The notes: generated by a model not told the origin, from the letters alone. Numbered from the stretch's first letter, positions 1 through 23,838 are shown. The stretch: DNA of 64,000 nt from a virus (IMGVR_UViG_3300010399_000040:3427-67426), one strand, 5' to 3'. Made by a program: numbers and translations.

Positions 1-198
1 AATCTTGTCGCCGATGTCGAATCCCTCCTCCTTCGCTTTCGGACCGACCGCCAGGACGGTGGCCCAAAGTGAATACGTCACGCTAACGTCAGCTAACACG
101 ATGCTGCCGACTTTGGTCGTCGGCTTATCGCGCTGCGCCACGATGCGGTTCATGTGAGCTTCAAACTTCGGCGCCTTCTTGTTTATCTCGGGTCTCAC
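1..198 (-). CDS. groES: GroES-like co-chaperonin (partial, runs off window start)
   Basis: Manual translation from GTG at 198, overlapping the upstream TGA: MRPEINKKAPKFEAHMNRIVAQRDKPTTKVGSIVLAD...ATVLAVGPKAKEEGFDIGDKI; matches the Cpn10 pattern. Not in the ORF track. Confidence 0.75.
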   Translation of the reverse strand, partial: MRPEINKKAPKFEAHMNRIVAQRDKPTTKVGSIVLADVSVTYSLWATVLAVGPKAKEEGFDIGDKI

Positions 199-1403
199 AA
201 TATCTCCTTGAAGGTCGGTAGTGGCACTATGAACTTCCCACCGCGAGCTAGCCACTCACGCTCGCGCAGGAGGAACTCGCTGATGAACGCGTAAGGGAGG
301 ATGAGGAAGCGCTGCGCGCGCCTCCGTCCGAACTCCTCGTCGTGTATCGGTATGTCCGTTCCGACCGTCTTGCGGCCGTGCTTCTCCACGCTCTTGTCGA
401 CAGCTCCGTCGATGAGCGACCTGTCGAACCCGTACCACTGGAGGATCGTGTTGCCCTTCGTCGATGCGCCGTAGACCCACACAAGGTGATGTCGGCTGAC
501 GTAGTCGACGCATCTGTCCCGTTGCTCGCACAGCCGACGGAACCAATCCTTCCACATGCGAGGTTGCGTAATCTCTTGCTCGACACCGCGGGCGAGCTGC
601 ACGTTCAAGCTTTCAGGTCCATCGCCTCCAGCGTGCCTCACGAACAACCTGTAGCTCTGCCCGTTGCAGTCGTTCGTTTCGACGTCAAATATCTCCAGAC
701 CATGCGATGCAAAGAGTCGGTCGAGCGAGCGCAGTGTGTAGAACTCCAGATGTTCGTGGCACAGGTTGCCTACGTCCATCATCTGGTACATGTTGTACGC
801 GCACATGAGCTGCGCGATGAACACTCCGTCCTTATGCAGGACGTGTGCGACGTCGCGTATGAATTGGTTCGGGTCTTCGAGGTCGTAGAACATGCCGAGC
901 GCCGTCACGACCTTGAACTTCGTGTCCGCGAAGCTACCGAGAGCTCCGACGCTCCAGAAGTCGCTCACGAGCATGCTTAGCCCGCGCCGACCGTCCTCCA
1001 CAAGGTTGAGAGCGGGCTCCACGCCCACCCTCACTGTGTCAGGTCGCATGTATCCGAGCTGACGCAGGAACGTACCGTCGTTGGAACCTATGTCGAGGAT
1101 GCTGTCGCCGTCAGCGAGGTACTGAATCGAGACGCTCGCGAGGTCGCCTAGATGCTTCCGCATCCAGTCGGTAGTGCCGCTGCGATACCAGTAGTGACGC
1201 GTGTACATGAAGTCGCTTGGCGCGGTGTGGAGCTGCTGCACGAGCGTGCAGTCGCTGCACATGACGACGTCGATGGGCACCTTAGCGTCGTCAGGTGGCT
1301 GCGTTTTGACGAAGTCGCTGACATGCTGAGCACCTAGCGAGAACAACTCCTGTAGCGAGCGCGAGCCGCACGCCCTACACGTGCTACGAGTCGTGTACGT
1401 CAC
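195..1403 (-). CDS. NDP-hexose C-methyltransferase-like SAM-dependent methyltransferase
   Basis: N-terminal CRAC...CSDC zinc site, LDIGSNDG SAM motif, HEH, YGASTKGNT C-terminal domain; GTG start at 1403 overlaps upstream stop (track start 1424). Confidence 0.85.
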   Translation of the reverse strand: MTYTTRSTCRACGSRSLQELFSLGAQHVSDFVKTQPPDDAKVPIDVVMCSDCTLVQQLHTAPSDFMYTRHYWYRSGTTDWMRKHLGDLASVSIQYLADGDSILDIGSNDGTFLRQLGYMRPDTVRVGVEPALNLVEDGRRGLSMLVSDFWSVGALGSFADTKFKVVTALGMFYDLEDPNQFIRDVAHVLHKDGVFIAQLMCAYNMYQMMDVGNLCHEHLEFYTLRSLDRLFASHGLEIFDVETNDCNGQSYRLFVRHAGGDGPESLNVQLARGVEQEITQPRMWKDWFRRLCEQRDRCVDYVSRHHLVWVYGASTKGNTILQWYGFDRSLIDGAVDKSVEKHGRKTVGTDIPIHDEEFGRRRAQRFLILPYAFISEFLLREREWLARGGKFIVPLPTFKEIL

Positions 1404-1591
1404 TTTAGAAGTTTCTCCAACCATCGCTCAGCCTCCTCCGCACCCTGTCTGAGCACGCGCCGAGCCCACGCGTCCAACGCGTTCAACTTCGCTCTGCGCT
1501 CCTCGCAGCAGCAGTCGCCGATGAGCGCCTTCACTCGCTGCTCAGTCACGCCCGCAAGCGAAAGCGCCTTCTGCACGTAGTCTCCGAGCAT
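1400..1591 (-). CDS. small Cys-containing hypothetical protein
   Basis: MLGDYVQKAL...DCCCEERRAKLN; stop coupled to next gene start. Confidence 0.55.
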   Translation of the reverse strand: MLGDYVQKALSLAGVTEQRVKALIGDCCCEERRAKLNALDAWARRVLRQGAEEAERWLEKLLK

Positions 1592-2015
1592 GCTCCACCA
1601 GAGCTCCATCGCCGGAAGTCAGTTCGGTACATCCGAAGCACGCGAGGCCGACGACGTCAACGACGTACGGACCGACGCCCGGTAGGTCGCGCAAGTCCTT
1701 CCACGTGTCGGTGAGGAACACCTGCGAGAAGCGGACGAGTCGCGTCGCGCGAGTGTGTTGGAAGCCGAGTGGTCGGAGCAGATCAGCGAGCTCGCGGCGG
1801 TCAGCCTTCGCGAGCGACGGAGGGTCGGGGTAGCGAGCGAGGAGCTTCGCGAGCACCGGTTGCATCGCTACGCGCCGCGTGCGGTTCAGCAGAATGCTCG
1901 CGACGCACACGCGCCACGGGCATCCGCCGAGCCCACACTGTATAGGGACGGCGTCGAAGTCCAGCTCGTCCGTCGTAGCGAGCGTCAGCACGCGCTCGCG
2001 GGGCAGAGGTATCAC
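1542..2015 (-). CDS. HhH-GPD family DNA glycosylase (endonuclease III/MBD4-like)
   Basis: PWRVCVASILLNRT, LLRPLGF, LRDLPGVGPYVVD helix-hairpin-helix motif; GTG start overlapping upstream TGA. Confidence 0.8.
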   Translation of the reverse strand: MIPLPRERVLTLATTDELDFDAVPIQCGLGGCPWRVCVASILLNRTRRVAMQPVLAKLLARYPDPPSLAKADRRELADLLRPLGFQHTRATRLVRFSQVFLTDTWKDLRDLPGVGPYVVDVVGLACFGCTELTSGDGALVEHARRLRAEGAFACGRD

Positions 2016-2437
2016 CGTAGCTCCTTCAGCACTTGGAGGTGCTTGCACGCGCCGTTGGTCTTGAACTGCCAGCAGGAGCACGCACCGCCGACGACAGTGT
2101 GCTCCTCCGCGTCGTCGTGGGTGCCGATCACGCTCCAAGTGTCGGGTCCTACCTTGCAGACAGCGAAGGTCTGCGCGTTACACACCTTCAGCACGCGCCG
2201 ACCCTCGACCACGTCGAGGATCACTTTGCGCTGTAGCGGCGTCAGCTGCGCTGCCTTCTTCGCTATCCTGTGGAGCTTCGGCGGCTTCGGCTTCCTCGGT
2301 GGCACCGGCACCTCGCCGAGGTAGGAGTTCGCGTTGACTCTCGCGAGCAACTCCCCGATCGTCTCCTTCGGCTTGTGCCCTGTCGTGTAACTGCTAGCGA
2401 GCGTCCTACCTTCGCTGCTCGGGTCGTGGTTAGCCAT
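2012..2437 (-). CDS. SWIM zinc-finger protein
   Basis: CSCWQFKTNGACKH; start moved to ATG 2437 because the upstream part of the track ORF is a ribozyme. Confidence 0.7.
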   Translation of the reverse strand: MANHDPSSEGRTLASSYTTGHKPKETIGELLARVNANSYLGEVPVPPRKPKPPKLHRIAKKAAQLTPLQRKVILDVVEGRRVLKVCNAQTFAVCKVGPDTWSVIGTHDDAEEHTVVGGACSCWQFKTNGACKHLQVLKELR

Positions 2438-2454
2438 CGCGACGTCTCTCAGAG

Positions 2455-2515
2455 CGACCTGGCTCATCAGCGTGCGGCGGTCAGCACGCACAGACGCCCT
2501 TGCGGGCGTTTCGCC
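2455..2515 (-). ncRNA. type II hammerhead ribozyme HHR1 (GUC, cut 2493/2492)
   Basis: GGC-GAAA-CGCCC(GCAA)GGGCG-UC|UGUGCG(UGCUGACCGC)CGCACG-CUGAUGA-GCC-AGGUCG; loop UGACC pairs with tail GGUCG. Confidence 0.92.
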
Positions 2516-3421
2516 TCACTTGACAATCGCAGGTATCGCAGCCTTCGCGTGGTAGTTAAGCGAGGTCGGCTCCTCCTTGCGCCATGCGTTCCACGCGTGG
2601 AGGCACTTAACGTACATCTCACGGGAGGCGACAATCTTACGTTCTATTCCGGATCGCCTCGTCATTGAAGCTCTTACGAGGAACCGTGCGAGCACCCTCG
2701 TCGGACACATGTTGTCCGGCGCAGACTCGTCCTTCACTTTCGCCCAGAACTCCGTCGCAGCTCCTCGCGTCGAAGAGCGATCGAAGGTCGCCATCATCGC
2801 GCGCACTACAGGTTCGCGGAGCATATGCTTCGCTGGAGACATAGCAGACTTCGTGTCGCTGCTGCCGCAGAGCTTCTTCAGCCAGAGGCAGAAATCCTGA
2901 CGCTCGATGAGCTGCTCAGCTCTCTCCGCGTGGGGCACGCGCGCTATCTCTGCATCAGACCACTTCAAGTTAGCTGCCGCCGACACCGTGAGGTTGATGT
3001 ACTTCGTACCGACGTCTTTCAGCTCCGGGATCGTAGCAGCGAACGACAGGTTGACGTCGCTATGCGTCCTGCTGGACAAGTTGCTGTCGTAAGTGGCGTA
3101 CAACATAGCCGCGTCGTTCAACGTGTCGCACTTCCACCGCTCCAGGATAACGTAGAAATCAAGAGGGAGCTTCTCCTGTGAGCCCAGCATAACTGACGTG
3201 TGCTTGCCGTTCACTCGGTACGTGCAGTTAGTCTCCTTGCAGAGCACCGACGCCCACGTGACAGGGCGAAAGTTTCCGTCCTTCAAGATGCGGCGGTACA
3301 CCAGCAACCGTCGTTCGCTCAACGGACGATCGTGCGGCGCCGGTTCCATCTCCACGAACTCCTTGACCAGCGCCTGCGTAGGCAATATCGTCCTCGGTTT
3401 CTCCATCTGCGACCATGCCAT
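2516..3421 (-). CDS. ParB/DGQHR-like N-terminal domain protein
   Basis: DRPLS...RVNGKHT resembles the DGQHR motif; GAGG RBS. Confidence 0.5.
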   Translation of the reverse strand: MAWSQMEKPRTILPTQALVKEFVEMEPAPHDRPLSERRLLVYRRILKDGNFRPVTWASVLCKETNCTYRVNGKHTSVMLGSQEKLPLDFYVILERWKCDTLNDAAMLYATYDSNLSSRTHSDVNLSFAATIPELKDVGTKYINLTVSAAANLKWSDAEIARVPHAERAEQLIERQDFCLWLKKLCGSSDTKSAMSPAKHMLREPVVRAMMATFDRSSTRGAATEFWAKVKDESAPDNMCPTRVLARFLVRASMTRRSGIERKIVASREMYVKCLHAWNAWRKEEPTSLNYHAKAAIPAIVK

Positions 3422-3440
3422 TGCAATCTACCTCTGCGAG

Positions 3441-3501
3441 GGAACTGCCTCCTCAGCAGCGAGAGTTCATCCTCGCTGGACGCCCTTTCGGGCGTTTCGG
3501 C
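3441..3501 (-). ncRNA. type II hammerhead ribozyme HHR2 (GUC, cut 3479/3478)
   Basis: GCC-GAAA-CGCCC(GAAA)GGGCG-UC|CAGCGAG(GAUGAACU)CUCGCUG-CUGAGGA-GGC-AGUUC; pseudoknot GAACU/AGUUC. Confidence 0.93.
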
Positions 3502-3705
3502 TCACTCCTCGTCGGTGTCCTCCGTCACTACCATCTCGTTGATGGACTCCCTCAACTGCACGACCTCATAGTCGTCGATGTTTGGCTCGCCGTCGAACTC
3601 GCTCAACTTATCGTTGAGAGCATCGTTCGCGGCGTCCTCCGTGTCGTAACTGCCGTACACGCAGCAGGCGCTCACGTGGTTGATGCCGTACTTCATCGCG
3701 ATCAT
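3502..3705 (-). CDS. small acidic hypothetical protein
   Basis: ORF with GGAGG RBS; stop abuts HHR2. Confidence 0.6.
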   Translation of the reverse strand: MIAMKYGINHVSACCVYGSYDTEDAANDALNDKLSEFDGEPNIDDYEVVQLRESINEMVVTEDTDEE

Positions 3706-3716
3706 CCTCCGGGGTT

Positions 3717-3746
3717 AAGATACTGTCTCTTATATGCGAAAGTCTA
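3717..3746 (-). promoter_or_regulatory. candidate internal sigma70 promoter
   Basis: TAGACT-N18-TATCTT in an AT-rich intergenic gap. Confidence 0.35.
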
Positions 3747-4349
3747 CCTCACACCTCCGATCAGCTGAGCCACGATCCGGTCGGCGCACACAGGGCCGAT
3801 GCCACGTGTGACGCTCTCCGGCGTAGTCAGAGGCCGACCGCAGCATCCGCATCGGCCCTCGTGGTGTATCCTGAAACCGTTCGCTTCGATTACGTCGAGT
3901 TCGTCGGCGAACAGACGCTTCAGCACCTTGTTGAGCAACTTCACAGGGAAGCTGTCGAGGGAGTAGCTGCTCCTCCCAGTGACTCTGACTTGGCCGTCGA
4001 CCAACTTGCCGACGTACGTGTAGTCGGCCGTGTTGTTGGGGCCCGTCAAAAGCTTTACGAAGTAGGCCACTGGCCAGTTACCGTTCGCCTCCACGCGTTG
4101 CGCCCTGTAGGTGTAGTGTCGTGCTTCCGTCGCGCGGTAGCGCTCCGGTATCTCGACGGTGAAGATAGCGTCACCAGCTAGGAGCCAGCTACTGGAGAGT
4201 CGAAAGCTTTCGGTTGAGCTCTCTGGCCTCGGCGTGGGCTCGCTGACGGTCTCCTGTGACGAAGACGACGTCGAACCATCCGTCAGCGCAGACGAACCCG
4301 ACGAAGAACGCTCTTTCGTCTGGGCATACAACGACTTGGTACACGACAT
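3744..4349 (-). CDS. DUF6011-like zinc-ribbon protein
   Basis: C-terminal CGCCGRPLTTPESVTRGIGPVCA. Confidence 0.75.
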   Translation of the reverse strand: MSCTKSLYAQTKERSSSGSSALTDGSTSSSSQETVSEPTPRPESSTESFRLSSSWLLAGDAIFTVEIPERYRATEARHYTYRAQRVEANGNWPVAYFVKLLTGPNNTADYTYVGKLVDGQVRVTGRSSYSLDSFPVKLLNKVLKRLFADELDVIEANGFRIHHEGRCGCCGRPLTTPESVTRGIGPVCADRIVAQLIGGVR

Positions 4350-4369
4350 GGTACTCTCTTCCAGCGAGG

Positions 4370-4429
4370 GAACTGCCTCATCAGTGCGGAGAGTTCATCC
4401 TCCGCAAACGCCCGTGAGGGCGTTTCGGC
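4370..4429 (-). ncRNA. type II hammerhead ribozyme HHR3 (GUU, cut 4407/4406)
   Basis: GCC-GAAA-CGCCC(UCAC)GGGCG-UU|UGCGGAG(GAUGAACU)CUCCGCA-CUGAUGA-GGC-AGUUC. Confidence 0.93.
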
Positions 4430-4639
4430 TCAAGTTTTTATTGTCGATTCCAACAAGAAGCCTATTGAACTCTTCTTCGTCCGCTCCAGACACTTGTCAC
4501 ACACTGCCAGGCCGCTACCCCTTGGTCCGCCTACATTCTCGCCGCCGAACTCAAATCCAGCTGTGAAAGGTTCATCGCAAAAATCACACATAGGCCATTC
4601 ATCTTTGACAGATAGCCTCCGTATGCGTCGAATCTGCAT
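4430..4639 (-). CDS. small zinc-finger protein
   Basis: CDFC...CDKC; GGAGG RBS. Confidence 0.6.
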   Translation of the reverse strand: MQIRRIRRLSVKDEWPMCDFCDEPFTAGFEFGGENVGGPRGSGLAVCDKCLERTKKSSIGFLLESTIKT

Positions 4640-4787
4640 GCTTCACCTCCTCTCCTGTGAGGGTATATGTCGGAGCTTCCTCTCCTTCCACCCACGTGTA
4701 GAAGTTCGGTAGGTTGTTCATCCGCAGGAACTCCTGCCGCTCCTCGAACGGCAGGAGTTCCGCGATCTTCTCAAGCTCGGTCCGCAT
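4599..4787 (-). CDS. hypothetical protein
   Basis: ORF MRTELEKIAELL... overlapping neighbours. Confidence 0.45.
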   Translation of the reverse strand: MRTELEKIAELLPFEERQEFLRMNNLPNFYTWVEGEEAPTYTLTGEEVKHADSTHTEAICQR

Positions 4788-4980
4788 TCGCCACCGCCTC
4801 GTGGAACTCGCCACGGTAGTAGGCCGCCACCACCTCGTTCAAGGCGTCAGCTACCATCGCAGCGACGTCGCCCAACGGAACGTTGCCTCCGCCGGCGTCA
4901 GCTTGGTCCACTTCCAACTCGCCGGAGACGATTAGCGTCCTATCCGGCCTCATGGAAGCAGTGAAAGGTCTCGGGTACAC
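4771..4980 (-). CDS. hypothetical protein
   Basis: GTG start after GAGGAG RBS, downstream of HHR4. Confidence 0.55.
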   Translation of the reverse strand: MYPRPFTASMRPDRTLIVSGELEVDQADAGGGNVPLGDVAAMVADALNEVVAAYYRGEFHEAVANADRA

Positions 4981-4996
4981 ATTGCTCTCCTCATGT

Positions 4997-5067
4997 TGAG
5001 GGGACTGCCTCATCAGTCGGAAGCATTTCAAGCTTCCGAAACTTGGAGCAGAGCTCCAAGTTTCGGC
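4997..5067 (-). ncRNA. type II hammerhead ribozyme HHR4 (GUU, cut 5040/5039)
   Basis: GCC-GAAA-CUUGGAGC(UCU)GCUCCAAG-UU|UCGGAAGC(UUGAAAU)GCUUCCGA-CUGAUGA-GGC; loop UUGA may pair with downstream UCAA. Confidence 0.9.
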
Positions 5068-5068
5068 G

Positions 5069-5479
5069 TCAGATCGCGAGAATCTGCTTGAACTTCTTAA
5101 TCGTGTCCATGTGAGGATTGCGATAGAGCACGTAATCACCGTCTCCGACCTTGACGAGCAGATCGCGTTCGTACTCACAGCCCCGCCACGACCCGTGCAG
5201 CCAACCGACGACGTTCTTGTTCATCCACGCGCTGAACGAAGGTTTACTCGCCAACTCTTGGGCTTCCTGCCGCTCTTCCTCAGTTGCACCACTGGGAGTC
5301 GAGTACTTCGCTTCGATGCTCTTGAGACGTTGCTCCTCAACTGGCGAACGGAGAGCGACTGGAATGAGCGCCTGCAGATCGCTGAAAGTGCCGATCGACC
5401 TCATCTGCTTGAGGATGCTCTTGGTGAGCTTACAGGTCCGCAACTCCGCTTCGCCAGTCCGGACAATGACATCTGCCAT
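5069..5479 (-). CDS. hypothetical protein
   Basis: ATG after AAGGAG RBS (MADVIVRT...). Confidence 0.6.
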   Translation of the reverse strand: MADVIVRTGEAELRTCKLTKSILKQMRSIGTFSDLQALIPVALRSPVEEQRLKSIEAKYSTPSGATEEERQEAQELASKPSFSAWMNKNVVGWLHGSWRGCEYERDLLVKVGDGDYVLYRNPHMDTIKKFKQILAI

Positions 5480-5568
5480 GGTAAAACTCCTTGTTGAGCT
5501 CTGCTCGGATTGAGTCAGTAGCTCGTGTAGTGCTGGCTCCGGGCTCCAGCACAGCGCGAGACACTGCG

Positions 5569-5787
5569 TCAGTGCCACCAGCACACCTCGCAGATCGGGC
5601 ACACGAGGGTGTGACCATGCTGCGTGATGACTACCTTCTCATGGGCGTCGTCGTACCTCCAGCACTTCGGGCACTCGTGACCTGGGTCGTGACCCAAATC
5701 AGCGAGTCGCCGACCAGACTCAGTGAACATCGCGCAGTGGAACTTGACCCTGTCGCACAGGGCGGGTAGAGAGTCCATCTCTTTCAT
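5569..5787 (-). CDS. small Cys/His-rich zinc-binding protein
   Basis: HECPKC...CPIC. Confidence 0.55.
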   Translation of the reverse strand: MKEMDSLPALCDRVKFHCAMFTESGRRLADLGHDPGHECPKCWRYDDAHEKVVITQHGHTLVCPICEVCWWH

Positions 5788-5798
5788 TCTTCGCGAGG

Positions 5799-5860
5799 GA
5801 CCTGCCTCGTCAGGCGACGGAGGTCGTACCGTCGCGACACCGCTTGTGCGGTGTTTCGGC
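5799..5860 (-). ncRNA. type II hammerhead ribozyme HHR5 (GUC, cut 5836/5835)
   Basis: GCC-GAAA-CACCGC(ACAA)GCGGUG-UC|GCGACGG(UACGACCU)CCGUCGC-CUGACGA-GGC-AGGUC; pseudoknot GACCU/AGGUC. Confidence 0.93.
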
Positions 5861-6429
5861 TAGAACTCACCTGTGTAATTCCTGAGCTTCATCGCATCGG
5901 CCTCTCGGCCGTTGTCGCTGAGGTAGTCGCAGTACACGTCTATCGGCAATCGTTCGTCTGGGTTGTCGAGGATCGCTTCCAAGAGAGCGTAGTGGTCGCG
6001 CCCAGCGAACGATCCGGCGTTCTTCGCTTGGGAGTAGAGTAGAAGCAACTTGAGGAGGTCCTTGCGGCACTCTTTGTCGGTCACTGAGTAGTTGTCGCAG
6101 TCGGCGTTCGCCCTCGCGACACCCGCGGCATTGAGCTGCAGTCGTACGGGAGCTAACCACTGCCTCAGTTGCGCCTCATCAAGTCGCTTAGTCTCGGCGG
6201 AAGCTAACTCGGGAAGGCGAGCTACGATGTGCATCACTGCCTCGAGCACTTGAGCGCGCCTGAACCGACGCCCCAAGAACACCGCTGTTCGGGGACCGCG
6301 GAGGTTGACGTATATCTCGACTCTGTTTCCGACGTGTATCGTTGCGCTGTAATAACCATGCGCTTCTAACCTCGCGTTCACACCTCCGGCGTTGAGCGAC
6401 TGGACGACGGCGTCCAAGAAGTCCTGCAT
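5860..6429 (-). CDS. protein with C-terminal TIGR02996-like domain
   Basis: ALLEAILDNPDERLPIDVYCDYLSDNG; ATG 6429 after GGAGG. Confidence 0.65.
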   Translation of the reverse strand: MQDFLDAVVQSLNAGGVNARLEAHGYYSATIHVGNRVEIYVNLRGPRTAVFLGRRFRRAQVLEAVMHIVARLPELASAETKRLDEAQLRQWLAPVRLQLNAAGVARANADCDNYSVTDKECRKDLLKLLLLYSQAKNAGSFAGRDHYALLEAILDNPDERLPIDVYCDYLSDNGREADAMKLRNYTGEF

Positions 6430-6446
6430 GAACTCTTCCTCCGGAG

Positions 6447-6513
6447 CGACCTGGCTCATCAGCACGTGGAGGTCGTTCCACGTGGACACCGGGCTCTCAC
6501 CCGGTGTTTCGCC
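6447..6513 (-). ncRNA. type II hammerhead ribozyme HHR6 (GUC, cut 6485/6484)
   Basis: GGC-GAAA-CACCGGG(UGAGAG)CCCGGUG-UC|CACGUGGA(ACGACC)UCCACGUG-CUGAUGA-GCC-AGGUCG. Confidence 0.93.
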
Positions 6514-6960
6514 TTACTTCGTGATACCAAGCGCTTTGAGTTGCTCCTTGACCCGCTCGGCTTCCGCCGGGTTGGTCGCGAGCAGCGTCTTGAGCATCTC
6601 GGTCACCGAATCGGCCGTCACGGCCTTCGGAGCGCGAGGCGCCTTGCCGATCTCCTCCGCAGTGCCACCGAGGTGGTGGAGCAGCGGAGTGCCGACAGTC
6701 ATGAAGTTGTGACTCACGACAAAGTAGGTCTTTCCATGGAGGTCGACCTTGAACGCTCGCCGTGGCCCGCTGTCGCGCGCGCTCGCCGCCTTCACCGCCT
6801 CCTCCGAAGTGGCGAAGATCGCTGGAAGGTCCTTCCAGCTCGTTTTCTTCTCCTTCTTCGGAGCGTCACCGGCCACCGGGACCTTCGCGTCCCCACCCTT
6901 GTGGGTGGTGGGAGCGGTCTGGGCTTTCGGGGAAGCGGGGGCCGTCTTGACATCTGCCAT
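6514..6960 (-). CDS. Ala/Lys-rich hypothetical protein
   Basis: ATG after AGGAG (MADVKTAPASPK...). Confidence 0.6.
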   Translation of the reverse strand: MADVKTAPASPKAQTAPTTHKGGDAKVPVAGDAPKKEKKTSWKDLPAIFATSEEAVKAASARDSGPRRAFKVDLHGKTYFVVSHNFMTVGTPLLHHLGGTAEEIGKAPRAPKAVTADSVTEMLKTLLATNPAEAERVKEQLKALGITK

Positions 6961-7014
6961 TGTAGAGCTCCTGAACGCAGCTTCAGTGGGTGCTGCTGGA
7001 CCCGTACCGAGGAA

Positions 7015-7079
7015 AACCTGCCTCGTCAGAGTGGGTAGGTTAACTCCCACCTACACTGCACTATATGCAGTGTTTCGGC
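7015..7079 (-). ncRNA. type II hammerhead ribozyme HHR7 (GUA, cut 7052/7051)
   Basis: GCC-GAAA-CACUGCA(UAUAG)UGCAGUG-UA|GGUGGG(AGUUAACCUA)CCCACU-CUGACGA-GGC-AGGUU; pseudoknot AACCU/AGGUU. Confidence 0.9.
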
Positions 7080-7084
7080 TCGCA

Positions 7085-7303
7085 TCACTTGATCGAGAAC
7101 TCCTTAGCCGTCTCCTCGCGGTACTTCTTGTAGAGGATGGAGTACGACGGGGAGTAGTGGCAGCTCAACTCGGGGAACACTTCGCGATCGATGTCACGGA
7201 AAGTCGCGCCTTCGAGTCGCTTCTGAGCGACCTCGTCGGTCAAGTACTTCTGGACACCGCTAGGGAGCTTGTTGAAGTCGCGGAGAATGGACTTAGTCTG
7301 CAT
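7085..7303 (-). CDS. hypothetical protein (first gene of early operon)
   Basis: ATG after GAGGTG RBS (MQTKSILRD...). Confidence 0.6.
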   Translation of the reverse strand: MQTKSILRDFNKLPSGVQKYLTDEVAQKRLEGATFRDIDREVFPELSCHYSPSYSILYKKYREETAKEFSIK

Positions 7304-7330
7304 AGAGCACCTCGTGTATTTGAGTGAGAG

Positions 7331-7392
7331 GAACTGCCTCATCAGTGCGGAGAGTTCAACCTCCGCAGAGCAGTCACGAGACTGCTTTCGGC
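7331..7392 (-). ncRNA. type II hammerhead ribozyme HHR8 (CUC, cut 7368/7367)
   Basis: GCC-GAAA-GCAGUC(UCGU)GACUGC-UC|UGCGGAG(GUUGAACU)CUCCGCA-CUGAUGA-GGC-AGUUC; G15.2-C16.2 covariation. Confidence 0.92.
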
Positions 7393-7609
7393 TAGATGTG
7401 GGTGGCCGCTCAGGATCGACCCGTAGGTCGCTCACCCGTCCACCTTGTGTCGGCCTCGGTCGTCGCTGCCCACTTTCCGTCGTGGGTCTTGCCCAGCGCG
7501 ACTCCGACCCGAATTGTCAAAGATATGTCATCAAGGAGTTAGAGGGTCGAGTCAGCAGAAGGATTCTTCGTCTCTTCTCGCTCTCTTTCTCGCTCCATAC
7601 ATTAGATAC

Positions 7610-7637
7610 ATCATAGCAGTGAAAGTTTCAGAGTCAA
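7610..7637 (-). promoter_or_regulatory. sigma70-type early promoter
   Basis: TTGACT-N16-TATGAT with extended -10 TG, upstream of the ribozyme-punctuated operon. Confidence 0.65.
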
Positions 7638-7803
7638 CAGTTATTTTTAAGTCTTGACTTGCAAACGACTTAGGTCTCGTTCTCCAGGTTCAATCCTGGT
7701 ACCGCCGATCCGGGGATGATATAAACCCCGACCCGCCGGAGATATCAGTCCATGGATCATCCAGGGAGAACTGGGATTGATACCGTGTACCGCTAGAGGT
7801 GAT

Positions 7804-8397
7804 CTATCGACCAGCACCTAATAGCGCTGCCAACTTCGCCTTCCACTCCAGGAGCTGACCCTCGCTGTGCTGCAGAGCGCGGACGAGGGCAGCTCGTTTG
7901 GCTGCGATCACTTCCTTCGGAGAGGAGTAACTCCTTCCTCGTTGCTTATGGCGCCGCCCTTTCAGCTCCGCATCCCTCACGTTGTCGGTGTTGGAGCCCC
8001 AGAACACGTGGTCGACGCGGGCGCACTTCCTGTTGTCGCACCTGTGACACACGACGAGGCCACGGCCGATGGGAGCACCTAGCGCTGCGATCCAAGCTCT
8101 GCGTCGGTCGCGGAGCTCCTCGTACTCCTCGCACGGAGTCGTAGCTTTCTCGCCAAGCTTCTGCCCGAGGCTTCCCACTGTGTACGTCTCAAGCTCCACC
8201 AGCTGCAGGGACACCACCTTCACCTTGTCCTCGTGGAGCCTCACTTTCAGCAAAGCCGATCTGAGCTTCGGGTGGGCGTCTTTCAGCGCCGTCTGCATCA
8301 CTCTCCTCTCTATGTAGAGAGTCCAGTGGAGCACGTTGCTCGCTACCCTCTTGTCGCAACCTCTCAGTTTCGCTCTCAGCTTCGTGAGCGATCTCAT
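7804..8397 (-). CDS. HNH endonuclease
   Basis: VCHRCDNRKCARVDHVFWGSNTDNVRD. Confidence 0.85.
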   Translation of the reverse strand: MRSLTKLRAKLRGCDKRVASNVLHWTLYIERRVMQTALKDAHPKLRSALLKVRLHEDKVKVVSLQLVELETYTVGSLGQKLGEKATTPCEEYEELRDRRRAWIAALGAPIGRGLVVCHRCDNRKCARVDHVFWGSNTDNVRDAELKGRRHKQRGRSYSSPKEVIAAKRAALVRALQHSEGQLLEWKAKLAALLGAGR

Positions 8398-8528
8398 CCA
8401 GCCTCCTCAGCACGACGTCCTTAGGTAACCACACTTCCTTCACCACGAGGTCGACGTCGCCGAGTCGGTCGTACGCCTCTGCTACGTCCTCGCGCTGCCT
8501 CCTGCGTACTTCCTCCAGGAGCGAATCC

Positions 8529-9038
8529 TCACATGGGATCATCGCGGCCGCCGACTACGCCTTTGACGACGTCAATGAGCTCCTTGATGGGTCTGCTGGC
8601 GTCCAATCGGATGTACCTGTACTTCCGCACTTCCTCCCTGTATATCTGGACGAGCCTCTCGTATTTCGCCATGTCGAAGAGCGGATCGGGAGAGGCTGTC
8701 CAGCGTTGCTTCAACGTAACTAGTGGACAATCGAGGTAGAGGATGACGGACTGACGCCGCCAGAACGACTCATTGTGCGTGGAGACAGGACGACCGTAGA
8801 GGCGACCGTAGACGACGTTCGTCAAGCTCATGTGGCGGTCCACGATGTACGTCTTGGAAGGATCGTAGAGCGATATCCACAGCCTCTCGAAGCACCGTTC
8901 GACTTGGTCGACGATCTTGAGTATGTCGGACGTCATAGGAAGCGTAGGTACGAACGTGGCGTGAAGCCGACCTTGCAGAGCTTGAAAGAGCGTCGTCTTT
9001 CCGCTCTTGTCCGGCCCTTCGAGAGACACTATGGGCAA
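8529..9038 (-). CDS. P-loop nucleoside monophosphate kinase (thymidylate kinase-like)
   Basis: EGPDKSGKTT, IVDR motif. Confidence 0.8.
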   Translation of the reverse strand: MPIVSLEGPDKSGKTTLFQALQGRLHATFVPTLPMTSDILKIVDQVERCFERLWISLYDPSKTYIVDRHMSLTNVVYGRLYGRPVSTHNESFWRRQSVILYLDCPLVTLKQRWTASPDPLFDMAKYERLVQIYREEVRKYRYIRLDASRPIKELIDVVKGVVGGRDDPM

Positions 9039-10012
9039 CTGAGTATCCTCCGGATGTCAGCGACTGCGGTCTTGGCAGCCTCGTCGAAGCTGAAAGAGAG
9101 CATCTGCTTGAGGGGAACTTGCGCAGGGGCTTGCAACGCTCCTTCGATGCTAGCCACTAGATCAGCTCTGTCGGCGAAGTGCGGCCACTTCGGACCGATC
9201 ACCTCCGTGTACTCGTGCTTCCGCAGAACCACTGGACAGCAGCCAGCGGCGCACGCTTCGCGGAAGCTGACAGTGCTACCGACATTCTCAGTGAGGTGCA
9301 CAGAGACTTCGCACGTAGCTAGCTGCCTCTCGTACGATTCGGAAGTCGACCACGACGCCGGTACGATGCCTTTACGTCGTCCGTACCCAGTCGGATCGCT
9401 CACGTACACTCGGACCCCGCGGAGCTTCTTAGCGGCCGCTGCAAACATCGCGTAGTTCGTGTAGTCTGGATCGCTGATGCGACCTGAGAACAGAATCGAG
9501 CGGGGCACTCGCGCGGAGCTCCGTAGCTGTAGCAAGTTAGTTTCGTACCCGAATGGCCACACGTCGTCGCGGAGCTTCGACGACAGCGCGTACACGAAGT
9601 TCGCGCAGTTCCACCCTTCGCTGTACAGCGAAAGCTGCTCTGGCTTCGCTGGAAGCGTAGCTTCGACGATCGTCTTGACGTGAGGATGCAAGTGACGCAT
9701 GGGTATAGGTAGGAACTCGTTCGACGTGACGACGACGCCTCCGTCGCCAGCTAGACGAGCAAGCTCGCGCAACCGCGACGGGTCCCAGTGGAACTTCCTC
9801 TCCAGGTTGCTGACGTAACTCGTCCAAATCCTGTATACAGCAGAGGTGTCTACGTTGCCCTCGCACGCGCCGCGTTCAGGTAGGACCAGCAAAGAGTCGT
9901 CGATGAGTTTCGCTAAGTGCGCGTAGATGCGCACGCACGAATCGCTCATAAGGAACTTGTCGGTAACTTTGTTCTGCTGGGAGCAGAAGGGGTAGAATAC
10001 TACTCTCGGCAT
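9029..10012 (-). CDS. GT-B fold glycosyltransferase-like protein
   Basis: ILFSGRISD...VSFREACAAGCCPVV resembles the GT4 EX7E region; ATG 10012 after GAGG. Confidence 0.55.
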   Translation of the reverse strand: MPRVVFYPFCSQQNKVTDKFLMSDSCVRIYAHLAKLIDDSLLVLPERGACEGNVDTSAVYRIWTSYVSNLERKFHWDPSRLRELARLAGDGGVVVTSNEFLPIPMRHLHPHVKTIVEATLPAKPEQLSLYSEGWNCANFVYALSSKLRDDVWPFGYETNLLQLRSSARVPRSILFSGRISDPDYTNYAMFAAAAKKLRGVRVYVSDPTGYGRRKGIVPASWSTSESYERQLATCEVSVHLTENVGSTVSFREACAAGCCPVVLRKHEYTEVIGPKWPHFADRADLVASIEGALQAPAQVPLKQMLSFSFDEAAKTAVADIRRILSCP

Positions 10013-10503
10013 CGCACTTCCTCCCACGTGGTCGCGATCGCTTGACGAAAATCGATGTTCCACGTCTCGCAGAGACGGAGCAAATGCGCCACGTAGTACA
10101 CGATCGCACCGCGCTCTCGCGGGTCCTCGCACACGTACGCCGCTTGCCCGCAGAGCTTCGCTGCCATCAGGAAAGCCTCCTTCGGCTTTGGGAGCACAAG
10201 CGACGCGTCAGCGACGACTTTAGCGAAAGCTAAATTGTTGGCGGAGCACAGCGAGCAGACGAAGATCGCGCAATCTCCGACGGCGTCAACTAACATCGCG
10301 TTGAAATCAGCGTCTACGTAACGTCGCTCCGGATGCTTACCTCCGTTCGCTTGCTGGCACTTCAGCAGAGCGCGCATCAGCTCTCCTGACTCCTCGACGA
10401 GCCCTGCTGCCGGAAAGACTGGGAGCTGATCTGGGTACAACCTATCAAGCCACGCTCTGTGGTCGCGTTGGAACAGCTCTAACTCAGTAGCGACGACGCC
10501 CAC
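10000..10503 (-). CDS. MazG-like nucleotide pyrophosphohydrolase
   Basis: LVEESGEL...DAVGD. Confidence 0.7.
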   Translation of the reverse strand: MGVVATELELFQRDHRAWLDRLYPDQLPVFPAAGLVEESGELMRALLKCQQANGGKHPERRYVDADFNAMLVDAVGDCAIFVCSLCSANNLAFAKVVADASLVLPKPKEAFLMAAKLCGQAAYVCEDPRERGAIVYYVAHLLRLCETWNIDFRQAIATTWEEVRCRE

Positions 10504-11237
10504 GGGTAGGCCTCCGGGTTACGCAATGCGTCGAAACAGGTGTCCCTCGACGCGTCGCTTGGTACTAAGATGGACTCGTTACGGGAACCGCTCTCGAACG
10601 CAGGGTTCGGCTCTATACTGTGCAGCGAACCGAACGTCCAGAACAGTGAACCGACGCTACGACCGAGCGTTTCCGCAACGCGGATCAACACGTTCGTCAG
10701 CACGACGAGGTCGTACGGCATCACCTTCGTGAAGTTGCAGCTACGCTGGTAGACGAGCAGATCGAGTCCGTAGCGCCCGAACAAGAAGTGGAGATGTGAC
10801 CAGCACGCCGGTCTGTTGACGTCACGCGGAATCGGGCCACCCATCTGGACCACCGCCGCACGCGTGAAAGGGTCGAGCTGAAGCGCTGCGATGCACTGCT
10901 CTATCTGAGGCACCGCGATCGCTCCGTATGCTCCGATCCACCTGTCACCCGTGAGGTACTTCCCGGCGCGAGCGTTGTACTTACGCAGCACACCTGCTTC
11001 CTCCGTCGCTGCGAAGAAATGGAGCACGTTCGCTAGCGCCCATCTCCTGTCGATAGGACGCTCCGTGACGACGTTGAAGAGCGGGTTAGTCAGCTCGAAC
11101 GTAGTGCCGGGTTTCGCTTCGAACGTGAAGCCGTCGCACGCAGGCGAACTCTCCACGCGACGCACGTACTTGTGCTCACGTATAGCACTCCACATCCCCC
11201 TGTAGAGTTCGCAGGCGTTCGCGCATCTAAGCATCAC
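10479..11237 (-). CDS. thymidylate synthase-fold enzyme, probable dCMP hydroxymethylase
   Basis: GAYG, DPFTRAA, PAC catalytic Cys, YQRSCN...PYD, GSLH. Confidence 0.75.
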   Translation of the reverse strand: MMLRCANACELYRGMWSAIREHKYVRRVESSPACDGFTFEAKPGTTFELTNPLFNVVTERPIDRRWALANVLHFFAATEEAGVLRKYNARAGKYLTGDRWIGAYGAIAVPQIEQCIAALQLDPFTRAAVVQMGGPIPRDVNRPACWSHLHFLFGRYGLDLLVYQRSCNFTKVMPYDLVVLTNVLIRVAETLGRSVGSLFWTFGSLHSIEPNPAFESGSRNESILVPSDASRDTCFDALRNPEAYPWASSLLS

Positions 11238-11806
11238 AGCCTCCTGAGCACCGCTTGCTTACCGAGCTCCAGCACCTCGTACGAGTCAGCATACGCTCGG
11301 ATTAAGAAGTCGATAGCTTCCTTCGGTTGCACGGCTACACGTTTGAAAGGGCGCGAGTAATCGTCGAAGATCACGGTGCAACCTTCATTGAGCAATCGGT
11401 GCACCAACACGAAGTCCTGGACGACGCTACGTCCCTCGTGGTCACCGTCTATGTAGACGAAGTCGTAAGGTCCGCTGTGCCACAGGAGATATGCCTCGCT
11501 CCGCATACGTCTGATAGTGACCTGTCTGCGACGCGCATGTTCAGCGATGTTTCGCGTGAACACCTCGTACGTGTCGCGGAGCGTCTTCTCGCTCTCTGCG
11601 GTCCCCGTGAAAGGATCAACGCACGTGAGCCGAGCATCGCTGTGTGTCAGCAGATTATCGAGCATCCATACAGCGCTTCGCCCTTCGAAGGAGCCAATCT
11701 CCAGGCACTTGCACTTAGTACCTGCCAAGTGAAGGAGATACTTCTCCCACGTCGGGACGTGCTCGCTGAACCAGTCGACAGTGAAGTTCACAGTATCCTC
11801 CCGCAC
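11234..11806 (-). CDS. class I SAM-dependent methyltransferase (Methyltransf_24-like)
   Basis: LEIGSFEGRS, YIDGDH, IFDDY. Confidence 0.85.
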   Translation of the reverse strand: MREDTVNFTVDWFSEHVPTWEKYLLHLAGTKCKCLEIGSFEGRSAVWMLDNLLTHSDARLTCVDPFTGTAESEKTLRDTYEVFTRNIAEHARRRQVTIRRMRSEAYLLWHSGPYDFVYIDGDHEGRSVVQDFVLVHRLLNEGCTVIFDDYSRPFKRVAVQPKEAIDFLIRAYADSYEVLELGKQAVLRRL

Positions 11807-13851
11807 ATCGCATCCATCTTAGCCCACCCTCCGGTGTTCTTGCTCCACATGGTGGCTGTGGTGCCTTCGGCTAACAAGGGGAAATCCGGCGCCCACGCTG
11901 GGCACTCGGACATAGCGATCATGAACTCGCGAAAATGCTTCGGGCCCTTCTGACAACCGCCTTCGTCGTGTACGTGGAAGACGGGGTCAAGTCCTAACTG
12001 CTCGTGACGGACTAACGCCATGCCGAGGAAGTCCGCGCATATCCCTTGACAGATGTTCTCGACGGCCTTCGACCCATAGAGAAAGCCCGTATAGCCACGC
12101 GGATGGTCGTAGACGAACGTCGGGATCGCCTTCTCCGGCATGTTGTACATCTTGCAGTACGCCGGGACCATGTCAGCTATGCGTGAATTGCGGTACACGA
12201 TGGGTCTGCCACTCGGCAGCTCTATGTGCAAAGAGTTCTGCTTCACGTAGAACTTGCACTTAGCTACCTCCGACGACACGCCGTGCACGGCGTTTATAAC
12301 AGCGTCGCCCACCGTCTTCCACAGAGCAGGAACTTCCGGGTACGTCGAGCGGTAGAACTTGACTGCCTCGTCGGCGGTGTAGCCTGCGTCGTACATCGCT
12401 TGCAGCATATCGAACTCACCACGAGCCCTGTTAGTGAACTCGAACTTCGCACCGGACATGCCGTATCCGCACCCGAGGATCAGAGCTTTACAGAGGTTGT
12501 ACTTGTCAGCTTCGTCCTTCTTGGAGACGCGTCGTCCGAATATCTTCTCACTGAGGTCGATGTACAAACTCTGCTTCACGTCAGCGAACGTCGCGAGCAT
12601 CTTCTTGGAGTCGGCGATCCACGCGAGGCACCGCGCTTCGATCTGAGCGTAGTCAGCGATGAGGAGATCGCCCTGCACGATGTGTCGGATCATGCCGTTG
12701 AGAATCTCGGAAGGTGCGATGTGTCGCTTAGCTTTCTCGCTAGCGTGCTTCGCAGCTGCTACCACCGCCTCGTATTCAAGCTCCACGCCGCGGATGTCGG
12801 TCTCGCGAGCGAGCACGGAAGGAAGGTTGTGAGGTTGGAGACCACGTCCAGCCCAACGACCTGGACCTGCGCCGTACACGACGAACGCGTCTCGTATGCG
12901 ATCGTCAGCTTCGAGGACACCCTCGTACCTCGCTCCCTTCCTCTCGTAGCCAAGCACCGCGTCGAGCTTGCCTACGCCAATGCCTACGAGCTCCTTGCGG
13001 TGCATCAGAGCTTCCTGCGCGACCTTCAGCATCTCGCCGAGAGATCCTTCCCCCGTGAAGAACGTCTCCGGAGAGTCGTTGAACTGCTTGAGCGTGGCTT
13101 TGTTCACGCCGTCAAGCTTGAAACCCAACGTCTCCATCCACTCTTGCACCTGCTTCGACGAGCGCGGGTTCACTTTCTCTCCGTCGTTCTCGTACTCGTC
13201 GAAAGCGTCGGCGGAGCGCCGACGGTTCTCGGCAAACAGAGCTTTCAGCTTCACAGCGAACTCGCGGTTCACGGGGATGCCTCGTTGGTTGATGATGCGA
13301 TCGACCGTCATGACGTCGGCTATGCCGTACCCCGCCACGTGCGAGTGTATCTGCTCCAGCAATACTACGTCGCGGACGTTATACTCCATCAGCATGGCGT
13401 GAGCGGGACCGACGGCAGGAACGCCCAACCGACCGACTTTGCACAGCATGTCGATCAGCCGAGCGCCGTTCTTGTCTTTGCCCTCCCCTGTGAGCGCCAT
13501 ACCGAGCTTGTCGAGGCCTCCGGGGAGGCCAGCGGCGTGGGCCATCGGAAGAGTGTCGCACCACGTCGCTTCAGGTAGTTTCAGCGTGTGCTCCCATATC
13601 GCAGCGTCGAAGGCGGCGTTGTGCGCCACCAACGTGTGTTGCTCTGCGATACGTTGCAACGTCTCTCTGTGCTCCGGCGTGAGGTACGGGCCCATGCGGT
13701 GGATCGCGTCGCCGACCTTGACTACGCAAGTGAGCACCTTAGTCGACGGGTCCTTGGCGTACTTCTGCGCAGTGGAGCCTTTGAGCTCGTGCGAACTCTG
13801 AGTCTCGAAGTCGATATACGCAGGGTTCACTGGCGACCAGTCACACTTCAC
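11788..13851 (-). CDS. family A DNA polymerase with 3'-5' exonuclease
   Basis: IDFET, AHNAAFD, YN..DV exonuclease motifs; ADYAQIEAR motif A, K...LG..YG motif B, HVHDE motif C. Confidence 0.93.
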   Translation of the reverse strand: MKCDWSPVNPAYIDFETQSSHELKGSTAQKYAKDPSTKVLTCVVKVGDAIHRMGPYLTPEHRETLQRIAEQHTLVAHNAAFDAAIWEHTLKLPEATWCDTLPMAHAAGLPGGLDKLGMALTGEGKDKNGARLIDMLCKVGRLGVPAVGPAHAMLMEYNVRDVVLLEQIHSHVAGYGIADVMTVDRIINQRGIPVNREFAVKLKALFAENRRRSADAFDEYENDGEKVNPRSSKQVQEWMETLGFKLDGVNKATLKQFNDSPETFFTGEGSLGEMLKVAQEALMHRKELVGIGVGKLDAVLGYERKGARYEGVLEADDRIRDAFVVYGAGPGRWAGRGLQPHNLPSVLARETDIRGVELEYEAVVAAAKHASEKAKRHIAPSEILNGMIRHIVQGDLLIADYAQIEARCLAWIADSKKMLATFADVKQSLYIDLSEKIFGRRVSKKDEADKYNLCKALILGCGYGMSGAKFEFTNRARGEFDMLQAMYDAGYTADEAVKFYRSTYPEVPALWKTVGDAVINAVHGVSSEVAKCKFYVKQNSLHIELPSGRPIVYRNSRIADMVPAYCKMYNMPEKAIPTFVYDHPRGYTGFLYGSKAVENICQGICADFLGMALVRHEQLGLDPVFHVHDEGGCQKGPKHFREFMIAMSECPAWAPDFPLLAEGTTATMWSKNTGGWAKMDAMCGRIL

Positions 13852-23049: not shown

Positions 23050-23050
23050 G

Positions 23051-23832: not shown

Positions 23833-23838
23833 AGGCTC

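Follow-up and report, generated by a model that had tools for sequence, protein, structure and literature searches.

Eight intercistronic type II hammerhead ribozymes in a complete tailed phage genome and their putative role in processing an operon transcript into linear messenger RNAs

Eight type II hammerheads in a phage genome

The stretch of DNA analysed here (the window) comprises 64,000 nucleotides (nt) and corresponds to bases 3427-67426 of the IMG/VR virus record IMGVR_UViG_3300010399_000040, a 67,426-base-pair (bp) genome that carries direct terminal repeats, is rated as 100% complete and, according to its Pfam and PHROGs gene content, belongs to an uncultured tailed phage. Within 4.9 kb of the minus strand (7394-2451), the window presents eight type II hammerhead ribozymes, numbered here HH1 to HH8 in the direction of transcription, all of them in the orientation of the genes among which they lie. 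Their structure, covariation and placement between stop and start codons point to a probable role in cutting an operon transcript into linear messenger RNAs (mRNAs). The purpose of hammerheads in bacterial and phage genomes is described as still undefined by Weinberg, Weinberg and Hammann (2019; PMC6765202).

Searches with the Rfam family RF02276 (Hammerhead_II) recovered part of this array, with three matches at the gathering score in the whole window and minus-strand matches spanning 2458-7393. In E-value mode on positions 1-14000, the same family returned six matches, four of them at or above 37 bits (47, 44.4, 43.2 and 37.7) and two just under (34.5 and 34.2). The gathering threshold for RF02276 is 37 bits, and is thus attained by four of the eight copies. 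A search of the whole genome at E<=1 returned seven matches, adding HH5 at 26.8 bits. In turn, a rule-based finder written independently of these sequences, which specifies GAAA, CUGANGA, a paired stem II, two closed hairpins, the A15.1-U16.1 pair and an H17 other than G, identified exactly these eight ribozymes in the 64-kb window, HH2 included. A covariance model built from the same eight sequences (R1) scored them at 58.7-81.2 bits, with the next match at 12.1 bits. Since these scores follow by construction, the informative part of this result is the absence of extra matches, and no further hammerheads were detected in the whole 67,426-bp genome by Rfam at E<=1 or by R1. The eight ribozymes, with their predicted cuts, are:

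HH1, 7326..7394, minus strand: cut between 7368 (C17) and 7367; Rfam 44.4 bits, R1 66.3 bits; detected by the rule-based finder
HH2, 7010..7081, minus strand: cut 7052/7051; H17 is A; R1 69.7 bits; full core and stems according to the rule-based finder
HH3, 6443..6515, minus strand: cut 6485/6484; stem II with flipped middle pair (GGC/GCC), and a GCUC tail; Rfam 34.5 bits, R1 74.8 bits
HH4, 5794..5862, minus strand: cut 5836/5835; Rfam 37.7 bits, R1 79.3 bits
HH5, 4997..5069, minus strand: cut 5040/5039; H17 is U; Rfam 26.8 bits, R1 58.7 bits (the lowest)
HH6, 4365..4431, minus strand: cut 4407/4406; Rfam 47 bits, R1 81.2 bits
HH7, 3437..3503, minus strand: cut 3479/3478; core CUGAGGA; Rfam 43.2 bits, R1 78.6 bits
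HH8, 2451..2517, minus strand: cut 2493/2492; stem II GGC/GCC, and a GCUC tail; Rfam 34.2 bits, R1 72.3 bits

The catalytic core (C3-U4-G5-A6-N7-G8-A9 and G12-A13-A14) and the A15.1-U16.1 pair are complete in all eight copies. The H17 position is occupied by C in five copies, U in two and A in one, and never by G, and the N7 position by U in five, C in two and G in one. All eight copies also share the type II topology, with closed stems III (6-9 bp) and I (6-8 bp) and an open stem II of 3 bp. In seven of them, loop I forms 4-6 Watson-Crick pairs with the five or six bases directly 3' of stem II, outlining a pseudoknot of which HH5 presents no instance at that location; one of the pseudoknot pairs is A-U in four copies and C-G in four. 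Covariation backs stems I, II and III as well as the pseudoknot between loop I and the downstream sequence: 91.3% of alignment cells are paired, a share that falls to 32-42% once the partner columns are displaced, and 12 of 20 pairs present compensatory changes. None of 500 shuffles attained these values. The ribozymes, their geometry and their covariation can hence be established from the sequence, and on the grounds of sequence and covariation these elements are real ribozymes: eight canonical, active-looking type II hammerheads.

Inter-ribozyme segments and their leaders

An earlier note on this DNA, made from the sequence alone, had described seven ribozyme-flanked segments between 2493 and 7367 and proposed that they provide each gene cassette with a uniform, stabilising leader, much like the synthetic RiboJ insulator, and that they may circularise. 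Both positions are indeed cut sites, 7367 being the first nt after the HH1 cut and 2493 the C17 of HH8, and the seven segments with a ribozyme at either side measure 316, 567, 649, 796, 633, 928 and 986 nt between consecutive cuts. The distances from cut to start codon are 64, 91, 55, 48, 59, 57, 57 and 55 nt from HH1 to HH8, in agreement with the list that the earlier note had given in plus-strand order.

The predicted 3' products begin at 7367, 7051, 6484, 5835, 5039, 4406, 3478 and 2492, with their first base paired in a flush stem I hairpin, and retain a ribozyme remnant of 37 nt in seven of the eight cases and of 38 nt in HH5. The spacers between this remnant and the start codon span 27, 54, 18, 11, 21, 20, 20 and 18 nt (HH1 to HH8) and hold Shine-Dalgarno motifs of the GAG/GGAG type. 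The uniform leader is therefore mostly the ribozyme itself, as it consists of a 37-38 nt remnant and a Shine-Dalgarno spacer of 11-54 nt. On the other side of the cut, the 5' products comprise stem IIa, GAAA and the stem III hairpin, followed by H17 with a predicted cyclic phosphate, and the resulting 3' untranslated regions extend 23-33 nt past the last nt of the upstream stop codon. In seven of the eight ribozymes the stop codon of the upstream open reading frame (ORF) begins 2-8 nt ahead of stem II; HH1 has no upstream ORF.

Eleven ORFs were identified in the seven segments, four of which contain one ORF, two contain two and one contains three. Together with the first ORF past the last ribozyme, and with lengths in amino acids (aa), they are:

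g1, 7085..7303, minus strand: 72 aa, no family match; segment 1 (316 nt)
g2, 6514..6960, minus strand: 148 aa, no family match; segment 2 (567 nt), after the longest spacer (54 nt, HH2)
g3, 5860..6429, minus strand: 189 aa, C-terminus weakly matching TIGR02996 (27.3 bits, below the 29.05 cut-off); segment 3 (649 nt)
g4a, 5787-5569, minus strand: 72 aa, Cys-rich; segment 4 (796 nt, bicistronic)
g4b, 5479-5069, minus strand: 136 aa; segment 4, with no ribozyme between g4a and g4b
g5a, 4980-4771, minus strand: 69 aa, GTG start; segment 5 (633 nt, tricistronic)
g5b, within 4814-4599, minus strand: segment 5
g5c, 4639-4430, minus strand: 69 aa; segment 5
g6a, 4349-3744, minus strand: 201 aa, C-terminal DUF6011 (Pfam PF19474, E=8.8e-14), phrog_20259; segment 6 (928 nt)
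g6b, 3705-3502, minus strand: 67 aa; segment 6
g7, 2516..3421, minus strand: 301 aa, no confident family; segment 7 (986 nt)
g8, 2012..2437, minus strand: 141 aa; first ORF past the last ribozyme

The proposal of a uniform leader for each gene cassette thus stands with regard to the leader, which is standardised in its flush hairpin, remnant and short Shine-Dalgarno spacer, but does not hold for every gene, since only eight of the 12 ORFs (g8 counted) directly follow a ribozyme. Searches for cassette functions in Pfam, PHROGs, NCBIfam and PADLOC returned only the DUF6011 domain of g6a and weak, sub-threshold matches.

A putative promoter was identified upstream of the array, at the predicted start of the operon:

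7610..7637, minus strand: sigma-70-like promoter, TTGACT-16 nt-TATGAT with a TG extension and 10 of 12 consensus matches

This promoter-like site was the sole minus-strand match in a consensus scan of positions 1-9000. A terminator-like hairpin (7741-7726), also 5' of HH1, lies ahead of it, and a leader of about 210 nt separates it from HH1, with no ORF of at least 50 codons ending at HH1. By these consensus matches, the array has the appearance of an operon of its own, composed of small accessory genes and transcribed by the host polymerase. Folding of the leader that HH1 would remove (7394-7603, minus strand) was observed to be somewhat better than that of its shuffles (z = -2.25, with 5 of 200 shuffles equalling it).

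A shared geometry among viral hammerheads

For comparison, we performed two scans of IMG/VR with IUPAC (International Union of Pure and Applied Chemistry) patterns, which returned at least 127 and at least 132 loci, and used the rule-based finder to extract from them 234 unique type II hammerheads, excluding those in the window; all counts reported for this sample are among the matches listed. In 136 of 226 usable hammerheads, an upstream frame of at least 50 codons terminates close to the ribozyme, with its stop codon beginning 2-6 nt ahead of stem II, compared to 7 of 375 positions drawn at random within these loci. Measured from the cut, the first start codon that opens a frame of at least 50 codons lies at a median distance of 57 nt (interquartile range 52-63), and at 45-70 nt in 162 of 225 cases, compared to 95 of 375 controls. 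The ribozyme remnant measures 36-39 nt in 211 of 225. The leader values observed in the window are thus the norm for the class. The comparison hence supports the standardised leader and suggests that it reflects a class-wide rule. Arrays as large or larger than the one reported here were also observed, with 10 hammerheads in 7.6 kb of one 18-kb fragment and seven in another record, and one 4-kb locus presented nine matches, seven of them at E<=1e-4.

Two further candidate features in the vicinity of stem II were rejected. The A that precedes stem II is not a by-product of the stop codon, since 49 of 71 and 16 of 19 hammerheads without an abutting stop retain it. A stem II lengthened by sequence 5' of the stop codon was visible on inspection in just two copies, HH4 and HH7, and is not conserved.

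The distribution of these elements could also be envisaged as a DNA-level phenomenon, in which the ribozyme repeats would mark cassette boundaries and supply homology for the shuffling of accessory genes, with RNA cleavage being secondary. The ribozymes are mosaic copies, with almost the whole 3' half common to HH1 and HH6, stem III common to HH6, HH7 and HH8, and 20 nt at the 3' end common to HH3 and HH8. The flanked genes are unrelated between phages, with the 12 cassette proteins and two flanking proteins yielding no tblastn hits in 127 other hammerhead loci, and inconstant gene identities were also remarked upon by Perreault (2011; PMC3088659). However, the stems vary by compensatory changes and every catalytic nucleotide is kept, which implies selection on a folded, active RNA that recombination sites would not need. 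Furthermore, the fixed succession of stop codon, ribozyme and start codon is a transcript-level feature. As the primary explanation, cassette boundaries hence appear highly improbable, even though they can coexist with the processing of a transcript.

A tail that mimics stem II

Directly 3' of the pseudoknot strand, all eight ribozymes in the window present a (C/G)CUC sequence, termed here the NCUC tail, that is the exact reverse complement of G8-A9-G10.1-N10.2. The tail helix was scored by exact reverse-complement matching; the MAFFT alignment had HH1 and HH2 out of register. In HH3 and HH8, stem II is GGC/GCC instead of GCC/GGC and the tail is GCUC instead of CCUC, so that three positions are altered in concert, but this concerted change may represent a single event, because 20 identical bases are common to both ribozymes in this region.

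The wider sample provides independent support for the covariation of the tail. Among hammerheads in which stem IIb is GCC, 24 of 112 carry a GCUC tail and none a CCUC tail, whereas 15 of the 108 in which stem IIb is GGC carry a CCUC tail and one a GCUC tail. The tail hence agrees with the 3' strand of stem II in 39 of 40 tail-bearing hammerheads (Fisher p = 4e-10), whose stem I occurs in 17 distinct sequences in the one class and in 16 in the other. Overall, about one sixth of viral type II hammerheads carry the tail and about five sixths do not.

Pairing of the tail is impossible while stem II and the core are formed, and becomes possible once the 5' product is gone. We read the tail as a post-cleavage lock that would fix the fold of the leader and oppose religation. 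By capturing G8-A9-G10.1-N10.2, it would drive the products apart and leave a defined two-hairpin leader, while also blocking religation and trans-ligation among many compatible fragments, and it could in this respect be regarded as a natural, self-locking counterpart of RiboJ. The geometry and the tail can tentatively be combined into a "punctuation grammar" of phage type II hammerheads, which we put forward as a possible rather than a probable rule: a stop codon abutting stem II, the ribozyme, about 20 nt with a Shine-Dalgarno motif and a start codon, plus a self-locking leader based on the NCUC tail in about one sixth of cases and in all eight ribozymes here. No description of the tail or of the stop and start codon statistics was found in the text of the literature searched, a scope that does not cover figures and supplements in PDF format.

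The position and composition of the tail are also relevant to an unlikely alternative, in which the ribozymes would be conditional and the tail a switch rather than a lock. The tail could mask the Shine-Dalgarno motif (CCUC/GAGG) in the uncleaved RNA and move to the core after cleavage, making translation dependent on cleavage, or a 30S subunit bound beside the tail could free the core, making cleavage dependent on translation initiation. The tail resembles an anti-Shine-Dalgarno sequence and, in folds of the spacer only, can pair with downstream GAGG in some leaders (CCUCA/UGAGG in HH5, CCUC/GAGG in HH7). In six of the eight ribozymes it is located 11-21 nt 5' of the start codon, close enough for a ribosome to reach it during initiation. 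Hammerheads in the 5' untranslated regions of fungal RNA viruses provide a demonstrated case of translation that depends on cleavage (PMC13725137), and regulated cleavage was suggested for some phage hammerheads by Perreault (2011; PMC3088659). Nonetheless, the hairpins between tail and Shine-Dalgarno motif are weak (3-5 bp), with spacer folds of -1.8 to -7.4 kcal/mol that partly involve other pairs, and this pairing gives no independent covariation, because a ribosome binding site would be expected to contain GAGG in any event. In cleaved products, the Shine-Dalgarno region is predicted to be unpaired with a probability of only 0.38-0.66, and a switch of this kind would be missing from the large majority of viral type II hammerheads that do not carry the tail.

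Two additional observations concern the sequences around the tail. In HH5, a candidate 4-bp substitute pseudoknot was identified by eye, pairing UUGA in loop I with UCAA slightly downstream of the CCUC tail. Furthermore, the exact 3' half of the ribozyme with a CCCUC tail was found in nine bacterial genomes or metagenome-assembled genomes, including those of Dehalococcoidia, Lewinellaceae, Psychrobacillus and Aminicenantes, among others. As these belong to very different phyla, this ribozyme subtype is widely spread.

Probable processing into linear messenger RNAs

The evidence presented above makes it probable that the array mediates the constitutive, host-independent processing of one operon transcript into linear mRNAs with hairpins at both ends. 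Cleavage of a single transcript, probably originating at the sigma-70-like promoter (7637-7610), by the eight intercistronic hammerheads would yield a discarded leader of about 230 nt, seven mRNAs of 316-986 nt, which carry between one and three ORFs, and the remaining RNA downstream. The first base of each mRNA, paired in the stem I hairpin, would bear a 5'-OH, and would be followed by the rest of the 37-38 nt remnant and the 11-54 nt spacer with its Shine-Dalgarno motif. At the other end, 23-33 nt past the last stop codon, the mRNA would close with the stem III hairpin and a 2',3'-cyclic phosphate, features of a kind that impede 3' exonucleases and polyadenylation. The products would stay linear, since only the 3-bp stem II links them after cleavage, and the NCUC tail would pair with G8-A9-G10.1-N10.2 instead of the lost 5' strand of stem II, thereby fixing the leader fold and making cleavage irreversible. 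The likely benefit would be that the translation and decay of each cassette become uncoupled from those of its neighbours and from the upstream leader, with no need for a host nuclease, a function that falls to host RNase III sites in the early transcript of phage T7 and to RiboJ in synthetic circuits. Cleavage in vivo, the use of the promoter, the fate of the ends and this benefit are what we infer from the array.

Several observations weigh against this interpretation. HH2 (7081-7010) was never reported by Rfam, even though its consensus is full, and HH5 is low-scoring and lacks the pseudoknot at its usual position. The promoter is a consensus match only, from a scan that gave two sites versus 1.8 in shuffles. 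In ViennaRNA predictions, which do not model the pseudoknot, the tail hairpin attains a probability of only 0.13-0.78 in the 3' products, and the support for the tail is consequently comparative, not thermodynamic. The patterns used to scan IMG/VR fix stem II, and the resulting samples are hence biased and not phylogenetically independent. Lastly, a stabilising effect of the processed ends is not assured, because a 5'-OH is a degradation signal where RNase J acts.

This last point bears on the premise in the earlier note that 5'-OH ends resist decay, which holds conditionally and depending on the host: the 5'-OH product of the glmS ribozyme is degraded by RNase J1 (PMC3997798). The flush 5' hairpin predicted for all eight 3' products is a more general protective feature than the 5'-OH.

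The nature of the predicted ends is also central to the proposal that the flanked segments become circular mRNAs, with closure either through a host ligase of the RtcB type or through reverse ligation, for which the two ends of a segment would form a hybrid ribozyme. All seven segments would present suitable end chemistry, with a 5'-OH and a 2',3'-cyclic phosphate, and the idea of circles had been put forward by Perreault (2011; PMC3088659). Reverse ligation would involve a hybrid stem II, composed of stem IIa of the downstream ribozyme and stem IIb of the upstream one, which is fully complementary in four of the seven segments here and in 41 of 52 in other viral arrays, but contains a G.G or C.C mismatch in the remaining three of seven and 11 of 52. 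In contrast, the cis stem II is intact in all eight ribozymes here and, in the other arrays, in 51 of 52 ribozymes on each side of the segments. That the hybrid stem is mismatched while the cis stem is intact indicates selection on cleavage, not on the joining of ends. Moreover, the 3 bp of stem II are all that could keep the ends of a segment in contact, the complementarity of cognate ends does not exceed that of non-cognate ones (-32.7 versus -31.7 +/- 5.4 kcal/mol), and the NCUC tail competes for the 3' strand of stem II and for G8 and A9. No RtcB, RNA ligase or polynucleotide kinase domain was found with Pfam among the 93 phage ORFs scanned. For comparable clusters, circular or spliced products were not detected according to Perreault (2011; PMC3088659, data not shown), and in the parts consulted of the review by de la Pena (2020; PMC7761336) the hammerheads linked to circular RNAs are of types I and III. 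The mismatched hybrid stems, the lack of specific complementarity between ends, the competing tail and the absence of a recognisable ligase among the scanned phage ORFs thus leave the circularisation of inter-ribozyme units without support in the sequence, and we give this explanation very little credence; ligation by a host RtcB is possible, but nothing in the sequence speaks for it. Conversely, the rules that emerge for geometry and tail argue for irreversible processing into linear, end-capped mRNAs over circular RNA.

Relation to known systems

The closest precedent for this locus are the prophage clusters described by Perreault (2011; PMC3088659), in which multiple hammerheads flank single genes or short gene blocks. 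Three clusters were reported there to cleave in vitro and one to do so in E. coli, and processing into gene-length mRNAs, possibly circles, was proposed. The array shares with these clusters the type II fold, the pseudoknot between loop I and the downstream sequence, the occurrence of several ribozymes in a row on one strand and the variability of the flanked genes. It differs from them in comprising eight ribozymes, where the three arrangements tested in that work were triple or tandem, and in its location, a phage genome that is complete (67 kb), carries direct terminal repeats and presents no integrase domain among the 93 ORFs scanned. In the available text of the article the term "stop codon" does not occur, and neither stop and start codon statistics nor a tail mimicking stem II are mentioned. 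In vivo cleavage has likewise been reported for three type II hammerheads of Desulfovibrio vulgaris (PMC8782182).

The likeness to RiboJ invoked in the earlier note is borne out in functional terms, as the leader has the layout of RiboJ (PMC6206723) and the same geometry recurs in other viral contigs. RiboJ combines the sTRSV hammerhead with a 23-nt hairpin and raises transcript levels about 2-fold and protein levels 2-10-fold, an effect ascribed to its terminal hairpin and to the exposed ribosome binding site (PMC6206723). As in RiboJ, self-cleavage would here strip any upstream RNA and leave an identical hairpin-bearing 5' end ahead of the ribosome binding site. RiboJ is, however, an engineered type III satellite-RNA ribozyme used once per gene after the promoter, whereas the ribozymes reported here are natural, of type II and located between cistrons, where they would also shape the 3' end of the upstream mRNA. 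Unlike in RiboJ, the second hairpin would here form from the ribozyme core and the NCUC tail.

The putative processing of the array also resembles that of the T7 early transcript, a long phage RNA that is cut at several intercistronic signals into gene-length mRNAs. In T7 the cuts are made by host RNase III and leave 5'-phosphate and 3'-OH ends, whereas the RNA considered here would cut itself, independently of the host, leaving 5'-OH and 2',3'-cyclic phosphate ends. Five RNase III signals are documented in the T7 early precursor of about 7000 nt (PMC3867540). As in the glmS ribozyme, self-cleavage would take place in a 5' untranslated region and leave a 5'-OH on the coding fragment. In glmS this end constitutes the entry point for RNase J1 and the mRNA is destabilised (PMC3997798), which shows that a 5'-OH does not protect by itself, but the 5'-OH nucleotide is here predicted to be base-paired in a flush hairpin. 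With retrozymes and viroid-like circular RNAs (PMC7761336) the array has in common segments bounded by hammerheads and ligatable end chemistry. Those elements, as covered in the parts of the review consulted, carry type I or III hammerheads, are non-coding or replicating, and have their ends held by extended structure, unlike the protein-coding units of this phage, which are bounded by type II hammerheads and bridged by a 3-bp stem II that is mismatched in three of seven cases.

Since the phenomenon and both hypotheses of the earlier note were already present in the 2011 literature, the finding as originally stated is not new. The locus nevertheless constitutes a clean example, with eight active-looking ribozymes grouped in a single operon and the phage genome complete, and the comparison with 234 hammerheads yields testable rules: an abutting stop codon, a start codon about 57 nt past the cut and a covarying tail that competes with stem II. 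Further attention is merited by the tail mimicking stem II and by the punctuation geometry, and, if the tail works as proposed, it would offer a ready-made design element for ribozyme insulators.

Genome context

Upstream of the array, the minus strand encodes a helicase, a PD-(D/E)XK exonuclease, a primase-polymerase, a family A DNA polymerase and a methyltransferase, as well as thymidylate-synthase-like, MazG-like, dTMP-kinase-like and HNH endonuclease genes. The plus strand carries terminase, portal, MuF-like and tail terminator genes at about 24-56 kb, followed by a glycosyltransferase-like gene at about 55-56 kb. A Pfam scan of 93 phage ORFs (25 + 63 + 5) revealed no integrase domain. Searches of IMG/VR with the DNA polymerase and g7 returned no close relatives, and the closest match of the DNA polymerase in a named phage is 28% identical. 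With regard to the host, no tRNA genes were found in the search for host clues, and the relatives of the primase in bacterial genomes are about 30% identical and scattered over unrelated groups. The sub-threshold TIGR02996 match in g3, a domain typical of proteins from Gemmata (Planctomycetota), provides the only hint.

The phage also encodes a 64-aa homologue of CsrA (window 21896-22090, minus strand; PF02599, E=1.3e-10). CsrA proteins bind GGA motifs in mRNA leaders, and GGA is present, inconsistently, in the stem I loop or the Shine-Dalgarno region of some of the ribozyme leaders. Among the structural genes, a 611-aa fusion combines a NUDIX hydrolase domain (E=3.8e-19) with a phage Mu F-like head protein domain (window 33037-34872, plus strand). 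A 1327-aa ORF (window 28257-32240, plus strand), with a portal domain at residues 353-595 as its sole Pfam match, may represent a fusion of the portal with other virion functions.

Sugar and modification genes are located at window positions 195-1424 (minus strand) and 55133-60524 and at genome bases 2468-3493, and comprise a C-methyltransferase, a DegT-type aminotransferase, a radical SAM/SPASM protein, two glycosyltransferases and a GDP-mannose-dehydratase-like epimerase. The same genome contains a divergent thymidylate-synthase-like gene (10479-11237), together with the dTMP-kinase-like and MazG-like genes, and the joint presence of sugar, modification and nucleotide genes suggests DNA hypermodification or glycan modification. 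Finally, the G+C content drops to 0.52 in window positions 22001-24000, compared to 0.56-0.63 elsewhere, at the point where minus-strand replication genes give way to plus-strand structural genes, and this region is probably a divergent control region.

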